A stretch of DNA of 28,946 nucleotides from an uncultured Candidatus Saccharibacteria bacterium (GCA_964438335.1 CAYTKG010000001.1:1-28946), one strand, 5' to 3'. Positions 1,736 to 21,517 are shown, numbered from the stretch's first letter. Numbers and translations: made by a program. Notes: generated by a model from the letters alone, not told the origin.

Positions 1736-1754
1736 CGGGCTTTTGCCCGTTTTT
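1736..1754 (+). terminator. Intrinsic terminator after the HD gene
   Basis: CGGGC-TTTT-GCCCG followed by TTTTT. Confidence 0.6.
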
Positions 1755-1804
1755 GGGTTCTGTCAGAAGTTTAAGTTCTTTTGGTTTTTTGATAGAATAA
1801 AGCC

Positions 1805-2662
1805 ATGAAAAAGTTTTTTGAACTTTATACTTCTTCTTTGCCTCAATCGACAATTGAAAGAGTAGGGGAAATCGAGGGCTATACCTTAAGATGGTTTTCC
1901 GGAAAATCAATTGTTAGGTTTTTGCCTTCTGAAAAAGAAGGATTGTTTTTTCGTCTTGATAGAAAAGAGATTGCCGTTTCTCCCCAAAATATTATCTTTG
2001 ACGAAAAGCATTGCACGAGCTTAAAGTCGGGATTGGTTGAGGTTAGGGAAACAGAACACGTTCTTTCGGCAGTCCATGGATTAGGAATCACAAATTTAGT
2101 GATTGAAATCGAGGGGAGCGGTGAGCCACCAATTATGGATGGCAGCTCAAAACCTTTTGTGGAAGTTTTGCTTAAATCAGGCATCAAAAGATTGTCGGAG
2201 AAAAGGAGAGAGATAAGGATAGTTCGCGAATTTAGCTTCTCTCTTCCAGGCAGTGAAAGCTTTATTAGAGCCGAGCCATTTGATGGTTTGTTTATTGATA
2301 TGACAGTTGACTATCCCTTGCCAATTGGCAAACAGCATTTATCAATATCAGTCAATCCAGAAAGTTATCAAAAAGAAATTGCTTTTGCCCGACCGCCTCT
2401 AAGATGTTCCATAGAAGAAGCCTCTGAAGAGAAACTTAAAGAGTGGTTCAGAGGTTGGCAAGAAGCAAAAGATTCAATTGTTTATTACTCCAAAAAAGAA
2501 TACTTAACTCCGCTTCGGTCAGAAGACGAAATGGTCAGGCACAAAATTTTAGATTTTATTGGCGACATTGCTAATATTGGTTTTCCCATTAAAGGGAAAT
2601 TCGTCTGTTTTAAAGTGGGGCATAGAATTAATGGAGAGTTTACGAGATTGTTTGCAAGTTAA
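1805..2662 (+). CDS. lpxC: LpxC-family (UDP-3-O-acyl-GlcNAc deacetylase-like) zinc deacetylase, divergent
   Basis: TEHVLSAVHGLGITNLVIEIEG-EPPIMDGSS, YQKEIAFAR, VRHKILDFIGD and KVGHRIN match LpxC motifs (E78/H79, H238/K239/D242, H265 in E. coli numbering). Confidence 0.85.
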   Translation: MKKFFELYTSSLPQSTIERVGEIEGYTLRWFSGKSIVRFLPSEKEGLFFRLDRKEIAVSPQNIIFDEKHCTSLKSGLVEVRETEHVLSAVHGLGITNLVIEIEGSGEPPIMDGSSKPFVEVLLKSGIKRLSEKRREIRIVREFSFSLPGSESFIRAEPFDGLFIDMTVDYPLPIGKQHLSISVNPESYQKEIAFARPPLRCSIEEASEEKLKEWFRGWQEAKDSIVYYSKKEYLTPLRSEDEMVRHKILDFIGDIANIGFPIKGKFVCFKVGHRINGEFTRLFAS

Positions 2663-2707: not shown

Positions 2708-2731
2708 ACCCGAGATTTTTCTCGGGTTTTT
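2708..2731 (+). terminator. Intrinsic terminator after the lpxC-like gene
   Basis: ACCCGAG-ATTTTT-CTCGGGT followed by TTTT. Confidence 0.7.
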
Positions 2732-2741
2732 GTTGAGAGGA

Positions 2742-2826: not shown

Positions 2827-3084
2827 ATGCCAAGGTTTGACGGAAGTGGTCCTCTGGGTTTAGGTCCGGGCACCGGTCGGGGATTAGGTCCTTGCGGCGC
2901 TGGTTTGGGTTGGAGAAGAGGTTTTGGCCGAGGTTTCGGTTGGAGAAGGTTTTGGGGTTATCTTCGTCGATCCCCAATGAGCAAAAAGGAAGAAGTTGAA
3001 ATGCTTACAGACGAAGCCGCAGTTTTGGAAGACGAATTAAAAGCGATTAAAGAACGCCTGAACGAATTGAGGACTAAAAAATAA
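2827..3084 (+). CDS. DUF5320-family Gly/Arg-rich small protein
   Basis: MPRFDGSGPLGLGPGTGRGLGPCG start, GRGFG repeats, and C-terminal coiled coil ELKAIKERLNEL. Confidence 0.85.
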   Translation: MPRFDGSGPLGLGPGTGRGLGPCGAGLGWRRGFGRGFGWRRFWGYLRRSPMSKKEEVEMLTDEAAVLEDELKAIKERLNELRTKK

Positions 3085-8217: not shown

Positions 8218-8237
8218 AATTAAGAGTGGTTGGAGAT

Positions 8238-10094
8238 ATGAGTTTTCTGAAAAATCATCAAACTAATTGGCAATACCTTCTCATGGTGACAGTTTTGGCC
8301 GTTATTGTTGGCCAATGGGCTTTAGAATTGCCAAAAAAGGAAGCCTTTTTGAATAATTTTCCGGGAAGCGGGAAGTTGATAAAGAAAAAAATTCTTGAGC
8401 AGAAAACAGAAACAACTTCCCCGGAAGAGAATAAAATCAGTATTAATGGGGATTTTAATGACAGTCAGCAGTTCAGAAATCGGGTGATAAGGTTTATAAG
8501 AGAAGCGGCCGAGAAGTACCTTGAAGAGAAAGACAGCGATCAAATAAGTTTTTCTTCAAAGGAATTGGAAATAAAAGGCAATTGGAAAGTTGAAGTTAAG
8601 ATCTACCACCAAGGAGAAGTAAAGGGTCAGGCAAGAGAAGAAAATGAAATCTTATCACTGGCTTTAAAAGAAGCGACTGAAGCCGCCCTTAATAATGAAA
8701 AATCCCAGAATTTGACCAAAGAAGATTTAGGAGAACTAAGATTCTTAGTCAAGTTTTTTTATCCTCCCCACCAATTTTCTTTTATTGAATCCAATGGCCA
8801 AGGAAAAGAACTCCTTGGTGATTTGGTTGCTGTTCGAAATTTGGATAAAAACTTGATTTATCAAAAAATTAATGAGGGCAAAGAATTTCTTTATCGAATG
8901 GAACACCAGGACAAACATGGTTTTTACAAAAAATACGATGTTCTTAACGACCGCTTTGAAAATCGATTACACACCGTTTATTCCGCTTCCATTATTTATA
9001 CCTTTTTATATATTTATGACTTGGAAAAGGATTTTTGTTCCGAATTGTCCGAGCCGGGCGAGCATGAATGCGGTCGGGAAATTTTAAAACGTCTGTCCGA
9101 TTGGGGAAATTTTCTTCTTTCAATGCAGAATAGGGATGAAAAAGACGAAAGATACGGCGCTTTCCATTATTCTTATTATTTAGAGACAAAAGAAAAAGAG
9201 AAAAAATTTGTGGTCGGCACCAGCGCCTTAAGCATTTTTACCCTCCTGAGATTATATGAATTTACTAATAATCCTGAATATTTAGAGTCGGCCAAACTGG
9301 CCGGCAATTGGTTAACAACAATGCAAAGACCGGATGGAGGAATGAAATCTTCCGAGACTTATTCTGATGGTCAGTGGTTGACCAATCAGAAGGAATCTTT
9401 GCTTTATGACGGCCAAGTTTTGTCTGCCCTTTCTAAACTTTACAAAGTAACGGGCGACGAAAAATACTATCAAACAGCTAAAAGAATTGCCCAACGTTTT
9501 GTTGATAAATATGAACAAGAAAGGGGCTATATTCAGGGTGAATACCGGGAGAAGAATCCTATTTCCAATTCTTGGGTGGTAATGTCGCTAATGGATTTTT
9601 ATAAAGCAACTCGGGCCTATAATGAGGCTGAAGCGGCGGATCTAATTCGTTACCGAAATATCATTTTTGAGCTGAGCGAGAAAATTTTGAAGAATCAAAG
9701 AGATGACTCAAAGGACCTTCTATATTTCGGTAGTTGGCGGGGCGCTTATTCAACCAGCGGCACCGGCTGGATGACCGAGGTAATGACCGAAACCTACAAA
9801 TTCTGTCAAGCAGAAAGAAAAGAAAACTGCCGTCAGTACAAAGACGGAGTAGTTAGGGCCATTAGATGGCTTATCCAAAATACTTATTCAGAAGAAAACA
9901 CTTTTTTCCTGAAGAATTCGGAAAAGGCAATCGGCGGTGTTTTTTGGAATAGATTAAATAAATATGTAAGAACCGATTCGGTCTGTCATGCCTTGAACGG
10001 TTATGTTTTGATTTTTAATGATTTAGAGGATAACCTGCTTCTTTCGGTGCCTGAAAAACCATTTGGGCAGATTTTTAGCGAGCTAAAAAAGTAA
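8238..10094 (+). CDS. Membrane-anchored protein: AMMECR1-like segment plus (alpha/alpha) helical-barrel (six-hairpin glycosidase/prenyltransferase-like) domain
   Basis: N-terminal TM helix; VKIYHQGEVKG...ALKEATEAAL...LTKEDLGELRFLV resembles AMMECR1; repeated helical units (AKLAGNWLTTMQRPDGG, YGAFHYSY, GSW); ends RTDSVCHALNG. GGAG precedes ATG8238 (alternative GTG8226). Confidence 0.6.
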   Translation: MSFLKNHQTNWQYLLMVTVLAVIVGQWALELPKKEAFLNNFPGSGKLIKKKILEQKTETTSPEENKISINGDFNDSQQFRNRVIRFIREAAEKYLEEKDSDQISFSSKELEIKGNWKVEVKIYHQGEVKGQAREENEILSLALKEATEAALNNEKSQNLTKEDLGELRFLVKFFYPPHQFSFIESNGQGKELLGDLVAVRNLDKNLIYQKINEGKEFLYRMEHQDKHGFYKKYDVLNDRFENRLHTVYSASIIYTFLYIYDLEKDFCSELSEPGEHECGREILKRLSDWGNFLLSMQNRDEKDERYGAFHYSYYLETKEKEKKFVVGTSALSIFTLLRLYEFTNNPEYLESAKLAGNWLTTMQRPDGGMKSSETYSDGQWLTNQKESLLYDGQVLSALSKLYKVTGDEKYYQTAKRIAQRFVDKYEQERGYIQGEYREKNPISNSWVVMSLMDFYKATRAYNEAEAADLIRYRNIIFELSEKILKNQRDDSKDLLYFGSWRGAYSTSGTGWMTEVMTETYKFCQAERKENCRQYKDGVVRAIRWLIQNTYSEENTFFLKNSEKAIGGVFWNRLNKYVRTDSVCHALNGYVLIFNDLEDNLLLSVPEKPFGQIFSELKK

Positions 10095-10100
10095 AAAGAT

Positions 10101-10655
10101 ATGGATTTTTATCTTTTTCAACAAATTAATCAATTAGCCGGTCGGTGGCCGTGGTTGGATGCCTTAGCTGTTTTTTTTGCCAGAGAAAGCGGCTACCTTT
10201 TAATTATTTTTCTTTTTATTTTTTTGCTTTGTCGAAGGAATAAGAAATACAGGATAATGATTGGCGAGGCCATTTTGGCTGCTTTTTTGGCCAGATTTGG
10301 TATTGTTAGCTTGATAAGATTGATATTTTTCCGGCCCCGGCCGTTTGTCAATCACCAAGTTAATCTTCTTCTGGCTCATCAACCGGACGCTTCTTTTCCC
10401 TCGGGCCATGCTGCTTTCTTTTTCGCTCTTTCTTTAGTGGTTTATATTTTTAACAAAAAAGCCGGTTTTTTGTTTTTGGCAGTTAGTTCCTTAATGGGTT
10501 TTGCTCGGGTTTTGGGAGGGATTCATTATCCGTCGGATATTTTTGGAGGAATTCTCGTTGGTCTTTTCTCGGCCTGGTTCGTCACTCAATATTTAAGAAA
10601 TTATGTTTGTCGAATTTCTGACCGGATTTCGAAAAAGATTTCTAATGACGATTAA
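10101..10655 (+). CDS. PAP2-family phosphatase (undecaprenyl-diphosphatase BcrC-like)
   Basis: RPRP, SFPSGHA and ARVLGGIHYPSD motifs. Confidence 0.92.
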   Translation: MDFYLFQQINQLAGRWPWLDALAVFFARESGYLLIIFLFIFLLCRRNKKYRIMIGEAILAAFLARFGIVSLIRLIFFRPRPFVNHQVNLLLAHQPDASFPSGHAAFFFALSLVVYIFNKKAGFLFLAVSSLMGFARVLGGIHYPSDIFGGILVGLFSAWFVTQYLRNYVCRISDRISKKISNDD

Positions 10656-16555: not shown

Positions 16556-17818
16556 ATGAAGTTATTAAATGCAATCAAAATCGCCATTTTTTCTTTAAGA
16601 ACAAATAAAACCCGTTCCTTTTTGGCAATGCTTGGCATTATTATCGGGATTGCCTCGGTTATCATTATGGTTTCCATCGGTAATGGAGCGAGGAATTTAA
16701 TTGTTCGGCAAATTGTTTCTTTTGGTTCGAACAATATTTTTATCGAGCCCGGGCCCTGGTCAAAAAGAATGGAAAGGGGTCAGTTATTCCAGTCAGCTTT
16801 AGAGGAATCTGAAATTAAAACTTTAACTTTAAAGGATGCTGAGGCAATTGAGAAATTGCCTAGCGTTGAAATGGTTGCTCCTTTTGTTGTTGGTGTTGGC
16901 CGGGTTATTTATAAAGATACCAACAAGAAAATTACTTTTATGGGTTCAACCTCCTCAGCCGGAGAAATAATGGGAGTGGGAGTGACCCGAGGTCGGGATA
17001 TAACCGAGCAGGAGATAAAGGCGATGGCTAGGGTGGCTGTTTTAGGATATAAAACAGCAGCGGATTTATTTGGTGAAGAAGACCCGATTGGCAAGACTAT
17101 TAGAATAAAAAAAACCAATCTAAGGGTGATTGGTGTTTTAGAAGAGGGGGGAATGCAGATGTTTATGAATTTAGACGAGATAGTTTATGTTCCGGTGACC
17201 ACCGCCCAGAAAGTTTTATTAGGCATTGATTATATTAGATGGATTATTGTTAGGGCCAAGAATGAAGAGGCGATCAATGAAGCGATTAGAGATATCCGTC
17301 TTCTGTTAAGAGAAAGACACGGTATTTATAATCCGAAGGGAGATCTCTCAAGAGATGATTTTAAAGTAATTAGCCAGGAGGAGACCGCCGAAATGCTCGG
17401 GACGGTAACCGGTGTTTTTACCGCCTTTCTTTCGGTGGTAGCTGCTATTTCCTTGGTAGTGGGCGGCATTGGAATAATGAATGTGATGTTGGTTTCAGTA
17501 ACGGAAAGAACTAGGGAGGTGGGTTTGCGGAAGGCGGTCGGAGCCCAAAAAAGAGATATTTTGTGGCAGTTTTTATTGGAATCAATTACCCTGACAATCC
17601 TCGGAGGGGCAGGAGGAATTTTATTGGGAATAGCCGGTTCTTTTCTGGGCGGAATAGCGATTGGTTATTTTTTGAATTTAGAATGGGGCTTTGTTTTGCC
17701 GTTAATAGGGATTTTAACCGCTTTCGGCGTTTCCACCATTATTGGCTTGGTTTTTGGAATTTACCCGGCTCATAAAGCGAGCCAATTAAACCCAATCGAT
17801 GCTTTGCGCTATGAATAA
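16556..17818 (+). CDS. ABC transporter permease (MacB_PCD + FtsX)
   Basis: NKTRSFLAMLGIIIG, SLVVGGIGIMNVMLVSVTERTREVGLRKAVGA, FGIYPAHKASQLNPIDALRYE. Confidence 0.95.
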   Translation: MKLLNAIKIAIFSLRTNKTRSFLAMLGIIIGIASVIIMVSIGNGARNLIVRQIVSFGSNNIFIEPGPWSKRMERGQLFQSALEESEIKTLTLKDAEAIEKLPSVEMVAPFVVGVGRVIYKDTNKKITFMGSTSSAGEIMGVGVTRGRDITEQEIKAMARVAVLGYKTAADLFGEEDPIGKTIRIKKTNLRVIGVLEEGGMQMFMNLDEIVYVPVTTAQKVLLGIDYIRWIIVRAKNEEAINEAIRDIRLLLRERHGIYNPKGDLSRDDFKVISQEETAEMLGTVTGVFTAFLSVVAAISLVVGGIGIMNVMLVSVTERTREVGLRKAVGAQKRDILWQFLLESITLTILGGAGGILLGIAGSFLGGIAIGYFLNLEWGFVLPLIGILTAFGVSTIIGLVFGIYPAHKASQLNPIDALRYE

Positions 17819-19172
17819 AAAAAAGAAACTGATGGTTTTAACTCTCTTGATTATTTCGCCTTTATTCTTCTATTTAAGTTTAATTGTTCCCAAAATAGTT
17901 GAGGTTAAGCCCCGGGCTAACGAATTTCCAAATTCTTCTTTTCCGAAATTAAACTTTGATATTAAGGTTAATTCTTTTTTTCTTCCTTTTTTTGACGAAA
18001 TAAAAGAAAATTTACTTACTTCTCGAACTGATTTTCTTGAAGTCAATCTTGAGGAAATGAAGGTTCGGGCTTATCGGGCCGGGATTCTAAAAAAAGAAGT
18101 TCCTATTTTAACTAAAGGCGACCCTCGAGGATGGGGAGGAACAGCCGCTGGTTTGTATCAAGTGAAATCAAAATACAGAAATAGTTTTTCCGTTGTTTCC
18201 AAAGTTTATATGCCTTGGGCTATTCATTTTTATGGAAAATATTATCTTCATGGCCAGCCATATTATCCGGGCGGCAAACATCTTATTTCTTCGGTCTCCG
18301 GCGGCTGTCTTCGTTTAAACGACCAAGACGCTAAGAGTATTTATCAATTAGCCGTAACCGGAACGCCGATTTTGGTAATTGACAAATCAAAAGATGGTTA
18401 TAAATATTCCGAGAAAACAATAACCAGATTTCCGGAAGTTTCAGCAAAGAGTTATTTGGTGGCTGATTTAGATTCCGGTTTTGTCTTGGCGGAAAAGGAT
18501 TCCCAAATTTCTTTACCGATTGCTTCTCTAACCAAGCTAATGACCGCCGTGGTGGTGGCCGAAAATATTGACCTTAGTAAATTCATTTTAGTGAGAGAAG
18601 AAATGCTTGAGGCTTATGGTTCAACTGAGGGTTTGGTGGCGGGCGAAACTTTTAATGTGGTTGAATTATTTTATCCTCTTTTAATTGAATCCTCCAACGA
18701 TGCGGCTGAAGTTTTGGCAGGATTTTTGGGGAGAGAAAAGACTATCAGATTAATGAACGAAAAAGCTAAGTCAATTTTGATGGAGCAAGCCACTTTTGTT
18801 GGGCCCTCCGGTTATAATCCGGAAAACAAAGCCAGCGCCCGAGATCTTTTTTACCTGGGACGGTATATTTTGAACAACCGACCACCCATTTTAGAGATTA
18901 CTAAAAGCAAGAAAGTCCGAACTTTTGGCAAGATAAGTTTTGAACTTGATAATCTGTGGAATAAAAATATTTTTGTTCACGACCCGGATTTTATTGGCGG
19001 CAAAACCGGCTACATTAAAACTTCTAAATATACTGCCCTTTTTATTTTTCGTTTTTCTGACGAGGATGGGAACGAGCGTCGGTTGGCAATCATTCTTCTT
19101 GGTTCCGACAATCTTGAAGTTGATACTCAAAAAATTTATCAATGGCTTCAAAAAAATTATTTTCAAGATTAG
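17811..19172 (+). CDS. Fusion of L,D-transpeptidase (YkuD) and D-Ala-D-Ala carboxypeptidase (peptidase S11)
   Basis: N-terminal TM; YLHG...SGGCLRL (His 18249, Cys 18306); then SLTK (18525), SSN and KTG motifs. ATG17811 overlaps the permease stop. Confidence 0.88.
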   Translation: MNKKKKLMVLTLLIISPLFFYLSLIVPKIVEVKPRANEFPNSSFPKLNFDIKVNSFFLPFFDEIKENLLTSRTDFLEVNLEEMKVRAYRAGILKKEVPILTKGDPRGWGGTAAGLYQVKSKYRNSFSVVSKVYMPWAIHFYGKYYLHGQPYYPGGKHLISSVSGGCLRLNDQDAKSIYQLAVTGTPILVIDKSKDGYKYSEKTITRFPEVSAKSYLVADLDSGFVLAEKDSQISLPIASLTKLMTAVVVAENIDLSKFILVREEMLEAYGSTEGLVAGETFNVVELFYPLLIESSNDAAEVLAGFLGREKTIRLMNEKAKSILMEQATFVGPSGYNPENKASARDLFYLGRYILNNRPPILEITKSKKVRTFGKISFELDNLWNKNIFVHDPDFIGGKTGYIKTSKYTALFIFRFSDEDGNERRLAIILLGSDNLEVDTQKIYQWLQKNYFQD

Positions 19173-20290: not shown

Positions 20291-21517
20291 ATGAATCCCC
20301 AAACAATTTCCTTAATTAGTATTTTTATCAATTTTGCTTTGGGCATAACCAAGGTGATTTTTGGTTTTTTTATCAACAGTACAGCCGTAATTGCCGATGG
20401 GCTTGAATCCGGTTTAGATGTCATTTCCTCTTTTATTACCTTTTTGGGTCTTCGGATTGCCAAAAAGCCGGTTGATAAAACCCATCCTTATGGCTATTTT
20501 AAAGCCGAGAGTTTGGCCGGGTTCGTTATTAGCTTGTTTCTTCTTATTTCCGGTATTTGGATTTTGTATGAGGCAACAAAGCGTTTTTTAAGCGGAGAGA
20601 CGGTGACATTTTCGATAAACGCTATTATAATGATGATAGTTTCGATTTTGGTGACTGAGTTAATGGCAAGATGGAAATTTCATTTCGGAAAGAAACATCA
20701 GAGCCTGGTCTTGGTAGCCGATGCGGAACATTCCCGGTCCGATGTTTTGGCTTCAACTGGCGTTCTGATAGGACTGGGTCTGAGTCGATATTTTAGTTTT
20801 GCCGATAATCTTATTGCCTGGCTGATTGGCGGCTATATTATTTTTGAGGCTTTTAAAATCGGCCGAGAGATTACCGATTCTTTATTGGATGTGGCTAACC
20901 AGGAAATTGAGGAAAGAATTGAGAAAATTTGTCGAGCTCATAAAATCGAAATTGCTGATTTAAAAACCAGGAAAATTGGGGCTTTTAATTTTGCCGAGAT
21001 TAAAATTAAATTGGCCCCAAAATTAAAAGTCGATGAGGTGGCTAAAATCACTGCTTTCCTGGAAGAAAAGCTTTTGAACAATATTCCGGAATTAAAACAA
21101 ATTGTGATATCCATCGAGCCCTATCAGATGACAAGAAGCGTGATTGTCCCTGCTTTTGGCGGGAAAATATGTTCTTCCAAGGGCTTTGAAAGAATCGGCC
21201 CGAAGAAATTGGGGAAAAGAATTATTGTTCCCTGGGGAGAAGGAGAAATAAGTTCTCGTTTTGGAGCCAGCCAGTATCTGATTATCGATGTAAAAAATAA
21301 TCAAATTTTAACTAAAGAAATTGTTAAAAATCCTTATTTTGAGGAAGGAACCTCTCGGGGGACAAGATTTGCCAAGGCGGTGAGGGCCGACAAAGTTCTC
21401 GTCCGACAGATTGGGCCCAATGCTAAGCAAAATCTGGAAAATTCCGCTATTGAGATAATAATCGTTCCTCCGGGAAAAGATTTAAAGCAACTCTTGGAAG
21501 AAATTAAATTCAATTAA
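20291..21517 (+). CDS. Cation diffusion facilitator transporter with C-terminal NifB/NifX-like (FeMo-cofactor-binding fold) domain
   Basis: KPVDKTHPYGYFKAESLAG, ADAEHSRSD, dimerisation domain (LKTRKIG), then ISSRFGASQYLIIDV...ADKVLVRQIGPNAKQNLENSAIEII. Confidence 0.88.
   Translation: MNPQTISLISIFINFALGITKVIFGFFINSTAVIADGLESGLDVISSFITFLGLRIAKKPVDKTHPYGYFKAESLAGFVISLFLLISGIWILYEATKRFLSGETVTFSINAIIMMIVSILVTELMARWKFHFGKKHQSLVLVADAEHSRSDVLASTGVLIGLGLSRYFSFADNLIAWLIGGYIIFEAFKIGREITDSLLDVANQEIEERIEKICRAHKIEIADLKTRKIGAFNFAEIKIKLAPKLKVDEVAKITAFLEEKLLNNIPELKQIVISIEPYQMTRSVIVPAFGGKICSSKGFERIGPKKLGKRIIVPWGEGEISSRFGASQYLIIDVKNNQILTKEIVKNPYFEEGTSRGTRFAKAVRADKVLVRQIGPNAKQNLENSAIEIIIVPPGKDLKQLLEEIKFN

Follow-up and report, generated by a model that had tools for sequence, protein, structure and literature searches.

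An LpxC-fold protein with a remodelled substrate region in a Candidate Phyla Radiation genome: a candidate hydrolase outside lipid A synthesis

We describe a gene found in a 28,946-nucleotide stretch of DNA from an uncultured Candidatus Saccharibacteria bacterium (GCA_964438335.1 CAYTKG010000001.1:1-28946), hereafter called the window. The gene (1805..2662, plus strand) encodes an LpxC-family protein whose metal and acid/base residues are conserved and whose substrate region has been remodelled. We favor, with reasonable rather than strong confidence, the view that the product is a functional Zn-dependent amidohydrolase that retains the metal-water mechanism of LpxC, acts on a substrate other than uridine diphosphate (UDP)-3-O-acyl-N-acetylglucosamine (GlcNAc) and works outside lipid A synthesis. 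The proposal rests on sequence, fold, selection, host and local context; catalysis, the nature of the substrate and the genome-wide absence of the pathway are what we infer from them.

A small subfamily of such proteins exists in Parcubacteria-type members of the Candidate Phyla Radiation (CPR) and is, as far as published descriptions go, new: our literature search turned up no account of CPR LpxC homologues, nor of the motif set reported here.

Fold, catalytic residues and substrate region

The 1805..2662 coding sequence starts with ATG and specifies 285 amino acids plus a stop codon; its N-terminus is kept in relatives. All other window features whose coordinates are given below also lie on the plus strand. 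The Pfam LpxC profile PF03331 matches the protein with 189.6 bits (E 1e-55; gathering score 27), from protein residue 14 to 281 and from profile position 1 to 264 of 268. Among solved structures, LpxC from P. aeruginosa, E. coli, Yersinia and Aquifex came closest (E 4e-28 to 2e-23). An AlphaFold2 model built from a 64-sequence alignment reached a predicted local distance difference test score of 96.5 and a predicted template modeling (TM) score of 0.94. When this model was compared with the PDB using Foldseek, the top 50 matches were exclusively LpxC structures (TM 0.82-0.87, root mean square deviation 1.9-2.9). Because the Pfam score, the confident model and the LpxC-exclusive structural matches agree, the protein is assigned to the LpxC family and fold as a full-length, two-domain beta-alpha-alpha-beta sandwich.

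Automated annotation already labels such proteins UDP-3-O-acyl-GlcNAc deacetylase. The protein missed all three NCBIfam cut-offs for LpxC equivalogs: it scored 134.4 against a cut-off of 187.25 for TIGR00325, 131 against 465 for NF009667, and 87 against 423 for NF009666.

Residues were compared using the numbering of E. coli (Ec) LpxC, whose sequence is identical to that of PDB 4MQY. Position tables were drawn from a 386-sequence alignment and refer to 14 complete members of the clade that contains the window protein (the window clade) and to 370 LpxC-family sequences outside it. The original prediction, made from the DNA sequence, held that zinc ligands and catalytic residues persist in TEH, HKILD and VGH motifs, and alignment with E. 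coli LpxC bears this out. E84-H85 (2054..2059, codons gaa cac), invariant in all alignments, corresponds to the general base Ec E78 and the Zn ligand Ec H79. The string H246-K247-I-L-D250-F-I-G-D254 (2540..2566), also invariant, supplies the equivalents of Ec H238 (Zn), K239, D242 (Zn) and D246, and H273 (2621..2623), within a KVGH motif, is the equivalent of Ec H265, the general acid or oxyanion partner. The three Zn ligands (H85, H246 and D250) and the acid pair H273-D254 are therefore kept alongside the general base E84, and so are two lysines that we term phosphate-facing, K247 and K270 (Ec K239 and K262). In the 4MDT product complex, K239, K262 and F161 reportedly face the UDP moiety.

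As predicted, the canonical A-R-T191-F192 is replaced by A195-R196-P197-P198 (2387..2398). Position Ec191 is Thr or Ser in 367 of the 370 other family sequences and Pro, Ala or Ser in all 14 complete clade members; position Ec192 is Phe or Tyr in 365 of the 370 and Pro in every one of the 14, a residue that none of the others carries there. T191, which stabilises the oxyanion, is one of the residues named as critical for catalysis, along with E78 and H265 (PMC13333357). Judged from the sequence, loss of a residue listed as critical leaves the catalytic centre less than fully intact. The "intact catalytic centre" of the original prediction thus holds for the metal and acid/base residues and fails at T191, replaced by Pro. 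Read from the position tables, the active-site changes are a lineage signature and not chance drift, because all complete clade members share the Pro/Ala/Ser-Pro pair where Thr/Ser and Phe/Tyr stand elsewhere.

Two further sites carry clade-specific residues. GYTLRWFSG (G25-G33; 1877..1903) stands in place of GxGLHxG (Ec G15-G21), a replacement that had been predicted: Ec H19 becomes R29, one residue is inserted and the canonical motif is lost. At the H19 position, 262 of the 370 other sequences have His, and every one of the 15 clade sequences aligned there has Arg. The second site is the clade-invariant H69-C70, within KHCT (2009..2014), which puts a His at the tunnel residue Ec L62, beside Ec C63; this placement depends on the alignment, as a second one has a gap there.

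A further change concerns Insert II, the element that shapes the passage for the acyl chain in genuine LpxC. In the window protein it spans L199-Y227 (2399..2485; Ec F194-V217) and includes the clade-invariant L-R-C201 and W214-F215. Its Gly-rich GL..GGS..NAIV half is replaced by EWFRGWQEAKDSIV, in agreement with the claim that the GGSLxNAIV region had been substituted. Counted over Ec 193-217, the clade has 28-29 amino acids where 275 of the 370 other sequences have exactly 25. Compared with canonical Insert II, that of the clade is less hydropathic (mean -0.63 versus +0.11), has more charged residues (9.1 versus 5.5) and fewer Gly residues (1.1 versus 3.6). Published LpxC tunnel residues are L18, L62, I198, C207, F212 and V217 (PMC11472313). 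In the alignments, which are unstable within Insert II, F212 is replaced by Lys, Glu or Gln, G210 by Tyr or Trp, and L62 by His, while L18, I198 and V217 remain hydrophobic.

Structure modelling, which had been suggested as a check, is consistent with these differences. DSSP analysis of the AlphaFold2 model assigns Insert II of the window protein to coil, a helix (208-214) and a second helix (219-224). A canonical Vibrio LpxC modelled alike has a strand-helix-strand arrangement (strand 189-191, helix 192-200, strand 213-215); the beta-alpha-beta Insert II of this control is not reproduced in the window model. Remodelling of the acyl tunnel, as distinct from its loss, is well supported by alignment, hydropathy and DSSP of the predicted structure. 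Altogether, the remodelled substrate region that had been proposed can now be described in terms of P197-P198, loss of the GLH motif and an Insert II that is longer, charged and Gly-poor.

Clade, selection and host

A search of 5.8 billion proteins yielded about 13 sequence clusters at 51-100% identity (P0001-P0013), beyond which identity falls to 38% or less. After clustering at 50%, the clade is one full-length representative among 1.84 billion. A clade-specific, degenerate 60-nt pattern matched only three JGI metagenome contigs, which gives a measure of how rare the clade is, and one new context was gained. A contig scan that used the clade alignment, with generic LpxC motifs, returned only ordinary LpxCs among the matches listed, at 38% identity or less. 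Ten full-length clade members have a mean column identity of 69% and about 75 invariant columns, which include all catalytic residues as well as R29, H69-C70, P198-L-R-C201 and W214-F215. The LpxC phylogeny advised with the original prediction was run as a neighbor-joining tree, and the clade was monophyletic in 100 of 100 bootstraps. These searches show that the gene does not stand alone but is part of a small, conserved clade amid a wider set of LpxC homologues with a long Insert II, considered below.

Synonymous sites are saturated between members whose proteins are 54-60% identical, with proportions of synonymous differences of 0.81-0.91 versus 0.25-0.31 for nonsynonymous ones. Two pairs are not saturated, and their ratios of nonsynonymous to synonymous rates (dN/dS) are 0.11 and 0.20, the latter resting on seven differences. 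The clade protein evolves under strong purifying selection rather than drifting as a relic, which favors a function that has been kept but altered.

Two unusual copies were also detected. In a near-identical strain with the HD, LpxC-like, DUF5320, DUF1003, SecD gene order of the window (L098:2391-3152), a 96-nt in-frame deletion between short AAAAGA repeats (window 2378-2473) takes out residues 192-223 (IAFARPP...EAKD), that is, the ARPP/Insert II region; the deletion is explained either by natural loss of function or by collapse of the assembly. The other copy (L088:3174-4178, on the 133.5-kb JGI contig Ga0172371_10000061) belongs to a clade member that is intact as far as FIGD and then continues into an unrelated, Lys-rich tail of 80 amino acids, without the H265 equivalent. 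The gene caller began at an internal Met, and the copy is probably disrupted.

The identity of the host was examined through marker genes. Among the top 120 matches of the window tyrosyl-tRNA synthetase (TyrRS), those with taxon names belong to Ca. Nealsonbacteria, Gribaldobacteria and Parcubacteria, at 65-68% identity, which fits the CPR-like genome of the original prediction. Clade member P0005 is present in two metagenome-assembled genomes (MAGs) at NCBI, directly after a ribosomal-protein/SecY/Adk/Map block in which S5 is followed by L15 at a 10-bp distance, with no L30. The absence of L30 is said to be a CPR hallmark. DNA runs that contain the gene come from hydrothermal-vent and marine-sediment metagenomes. 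A CPR host of Parcubacteria type is thus supported.

Such a host is an unexpected place for LpxC. Lipid A genes, lpxC and kdsA among them, have been reported as missing from CPR genomes (PMC5220378), and CPR cells as having no outer membrane (PMC7137472). At the level of KEGG categories, the latter study noted that Patescibacteria keep some "lipopolysaccharide" genes, and proteins like the one described here may be part of the explanation. As had been predicted, no LpxA, LpxD, LpxB or FabZ domain was detected in any open reading frame (ORF) of the window. The flanks of five relatives also contained no lpx gene.

Proposed function and alternatives

We propose that the LpxC-like protein is cytoplasmic and would hydrolyse an N-acetyl (amide) group by the metal-water mechanism of LpxC. 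Its substrate would differ from UDP-3-O-(R-3-hydroxyacyl)-GlcNAc, the most plausible candidate being a nucleotide-sugar or a GlcNAc-bearing envelope precursor without a long 3-O-acyl chain, and its role would be that of a stand-alone, single-gene function outside lipid A synthesis. A nucleotide-sugar is plausible because the equivalents of the UDP-facing K239, K262 and F161 are kept. The repurposed deacetylase of the original prediction agrees with the LpxC fold, the altered substrate region, purifying selection and the lack of local lpx genes; the substrates that it named (non-acylated UDP-GlcNAc, another sugar nucleotide or a host-derived precursor) are hypothetical candidates.

Several observations weigh against this proposal. 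Retention of the same three UDP-facing residues leaves room for an acylated UDP-sugar, and loss of T191 may merely lower activity. The case for a changed tunnel consists of alignment and DSSP, and the Insert II alignment varies between runs. The absence of lpx genes refers to the window and the flanks of relatives, so that a lipid A pathway might lie elsewhere in the genome. An expression search found no RNA runs with the gene. In addition, two close relatives are damaged, one by the L098 deletion and the other by the replaced C-terminus of L088; therefore, the gene may be dispensable in some lineages.

A conservative view of the same evidence is that the protein is an ordinary, if divergent, LpxC that catalyses the committed step of lipid A synthesis within a cryptic pathway encoded elsewhere in the CPR genome. 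The strong PF03331 match and the LpxC fold agree with this view, as does the presence of the Zn ligands, E78, H265, D246, K239, K262 and an aromatic residue at F161; the bulk KEGG survey, with its "lipopolysaccharide" category genes kept in Patescibacteria (PMC7137472), points in the same direction. We judge it quite unlikely, however, as T191 and F192, around 99% conserved elsewhere, are replaced in every clade member, the GLH motif is lost, Insert II is remodelled and all three equivalog cut-offs are missed. Furthermore, none of six contexts has an lpx neighbor, and CPR lack the outer membrane and lpxC/kdsA (PMC5220378, PMC7137472). A further alternative is action on host-derived material: an epibiotic CPR cell might process scavenged lipid A precursors or GlcNAc-lipids of a Gram-negative host, or interfere with them. 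CPR rely on hosts for lipids and building blocks (PMC5220378, PMC7137472), and the UDP-facing lysines would suit this scenario. Yet no signal peptide or linkage to a secretion system is visible in the sequence, no defence or phage family matches the protein, and the changes in the tunnel lining disfavor long-acyl substrates; we regard it as improbable.

Loss of the catalytic Thr admits another explanation, namely that the gene is a vestige, or a catalytically dead derivative, of an lpxC that was ancestral or acquired by transfer, either decaying or kept as a binding or regulatory protein. The near-identical strain with 32 amino acids of the ARPP/Insert II region deleted in frame would fit decay, and so would the L088 relative devoid of its C-terminus and H265 equivalent; there is also a precedent in the orphan lpxC of monoderm Bacillota, interpreted as a vestigial lpxC2 (PMC11448272). 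A remnant is difficult to reconcile with saturated synonymous sites at 54-60% protein identity, dN/dS of 0.11-0.20, invariant metal and acid/base residues, some 75 invariant columns over ten members and a very confident AlphaFold2 model, while a non-catalytic role would not need conservation of E84, H273 and D254. We thus consider this explanation unlikely. Lastly, the contig might be mis-binned or chimeric and the gene might come from a diderm bacterium. Beyond the surprise of finding an LpxC homologue in such a contig, nothing speaks for this explanation, which is extremely improbable and was rejected: the gene order HD, LpxC-like, DUF5320, DUF1003, SecD recurs in independent ENA, Logan and JGI assemblies, the linked TyrRS is of CPR type, relatives occur in CPR-style contexts of two NCBI MAGs, and GC content and GC skew are uniform over the window.

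LpxC is regarded as an enzyme with one function and is a narrow-spectrum antibiotic target, and lpxC serves as a marker of lipopolysaccharide (LPS) outer membranes in studies of diderm/monoderm evolution. Confirmation of our proposal would mean that an lpxC match alone is no evidence of lipid A synthesis. It would also provide an entry point to CPR envelope or aminosugar chemistry, and a natural experiment on the specificity residues of LpxC (T191/F192, GLH and Insert II).

Gene neighborhood and comparison with known systems

The gene appears to form its own unit. The terminator noted in the original prediction is real as a pattern: a terminator-like hairpin, ACCCGAGA-TTTT-TCTCGGGT followed by TTTTGTTGAG (2708..2737), has a stem at 2708-2727 with 8 pairs, 5 of them G-C, and starts 46 nt past the stop codon. 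Another hairpin of this kind, CGGGC-TTTT-GCCCG plus TTTTTGG (1736..1759; stem 1736-1749), follows the upstream HD-domain gene. A candidate extended -10 element, TGATAGAAT (1790..1798), was read by eye and ends 6 nt before the ATG; a consensus promoter scan did not report it, and no -35 is present. No Shine-Dalgarno sequence is evident upstream of the ATG on reading the sequence. The bracketing hairpins, the position of TGATAGAAT and the lack of an evident Shine-Dalgarno sequence suggest that the gene is monocistronic, and possibly leaderless or with a very short leader.

Other proteins encoded in the window include HD-domain, DUF5320 and DUF1003 proteins, SecD, SecF, TyrRS, a PAP2 phosphatase, a MacB-type ABC system, a YkuD-S11 peptidoglycan enzyme and GDH, among others. 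The flanks of relatives harbor a ribosomal-protein operon with a beta-CASP RNase and Fic, radical-SAM genes, ArgRS and kinases, and the TyrRS of a related 607-kb contig has a neighborhood different from that of the window. As the six contexts compared share nothing beyond strain-level synteny, they offer no guilt-by-association clue. PADLOC and PHROGs gave no match for the LpxC-like protein, and a defence or phage role was dropped for this reason.

Some neighbors have traits of their own. The downstream DUF5320 protein (2827-3084) has a repetitive N-terminal half rich in Gly, Arg and Pro (GPLGLGPGTGRGLGPCGAGLGWRRGFGRGFGWRRFWG), and it stays linked to the LpxC-like gene only in near-identical strains. 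A single ORF of 457 amino acids (17799-19172) has two domains, a YkuD L,D-transpeptidase (79-193) and an S11 D,D-carboxypeptidase (208-412). A cation-diffusion-facilitator transporter (20291-21517; Cation_efflux plus ZT_dimer) ends in a Nitro_FeMo-Co domain, which is dinitrogenase cofactor-binding-like. A 622-amino acid protein (8226-10094) shows weak matches to (alpha/alpha)6-barrels (GH76, GH88, GH127 and LanC-like); the PAP2 phosphatase gene (10101-10655) starts 6 nt after it, and the two may be an envelope glycan or lipid-phosphate pair. All large ORFs of the window (1-28946) but one are on the plus strand, GC skew is positive throughout and cumulative skew climbs monotonically, a pattern consistent with a segment of a single leading-strand replichore. 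Neither tRNAs nor Rfam RNAs were detected in the 28.9 kb.

A profile search, and a second one seeded with its matches, retrieved further LpxC homologues with an Insert II of 30-34 residues. This long-Insert-II group (P0248-P0262 and P0394-P0417) includes a protein from a Ca. Saccharimonadales MAG, so that at least one member has a CPR origin. Like the window clade, it keeps the catalytic centre, has often lost the GLH motif and has an enlarged, charged Insert II; K143 is usually not Lys. The His at Ec L62, invariant as H69 in the window clade, is nearly invariant in this group. Unlike the window clade, the group keeps T/S191-F192, and its signature is ARTF-xRxP..W.R.R..LP..SPxI with KPGH; the window clade has instead an insert of 28-29 amino acids, ARxPLRC..EWF.GY and KVGH.

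In four of five contexts, the long-Insert-II gene adjoins or overlaps a gene of 200-285 amino acids with a PF03781 FGE-sulfatase domain (L095:2084-3685, L096:1036-2495, L097:2135-4616 and L099:5163-6873). A NAGPA phosphodiester glycosidase, a VanY/M15 peptidase and a GFO/IDH/MocA oxidoreductase were each found nearby once. The two adjacent genes may constitute an undescribed module; a literature search found no paper linking LpxC with formylglycine enzymes. The PF03781 gene is absent from the window and from the clade contexts.

A tentative wider reading, to which we give slightly less than even weight, is that the window clade and its long-Insert-II relatives represent a radiation of LpxC-fold zinc hydrolases, at least partly in CPR, recruited to one or several pathways other than lipid A, with sister groups in which the enzyme would form a two-gene module with an FGE-sulfatase-like partner. 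If this is true, it would be the first function outside lipid A for a fold so far tied to one reaction, possibly in the construction or remodelling of the CPR cell envelope, which is poorly understood. A joint clade of the window clade and the long-Insert-II groups was not adopted, as the neighbor-joining tree recovered it in 0 of 100 bootstraps. Many LpxC homologues from Nitrospirota- and Deltaproteobacteria-type MAGs represent another kind of variant: they are fusions with a response-regulator receiver domain (PF00072), with the distinctive motif ARSFNT...MTSH and with GLLSG for GLHxG.

LpxC itself (EC 3.5.1.108; E. coli 4MQY/4MDT, P. aeruginosa 7K99 and A. aeolicus 1P42) has the same fold as the window protein and a similar length, and the window protein is 28-31% identical to solved structures. 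Common to both are the His/His/Asp Zn ligands, the Glu general base, the His-Asp pair, K239, K262 and an aromatic residue at the F161 equivalent. The window protein differs in its conserved N-terminal extension of 11 residues, its lack of a C-terminal tail, its scores below the cut-offs of the equivalog hidden Markov models, the absence of lpxA/lpxD/fabZ neighbors and a CPR host without outer membrane.

Orphan lpxC genes of monoderm Bacillota (Desulfotomaculum acetoxidans and Peptococcaceae DCMF) have been read as vestigial lpxC2 (PMC11448272). Compared by description only, they group with Terrabacteria LpxCs, and no remodelling of the active site is reported for them (PMC11448272). Like the window gene, they are singletons that lie outside lpx clusters, and their lineage has no LPS outer membrane.

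Outside the family, the LmbE/PIG-L/MshB/BshB and the CE4 PgdA-type enzymes are metal-dependent GlcNAc de-N-acetylases with folds unrelated to that of LpxC. LmbE/PIG-L and CE4 enzymes offer a functional analogy only, in that they carry out Zn-dependent removal of N-acetyl groups from GlcNAc-bearing precursors outside lipid A, a reaction of the kind that we propose for the window protein.

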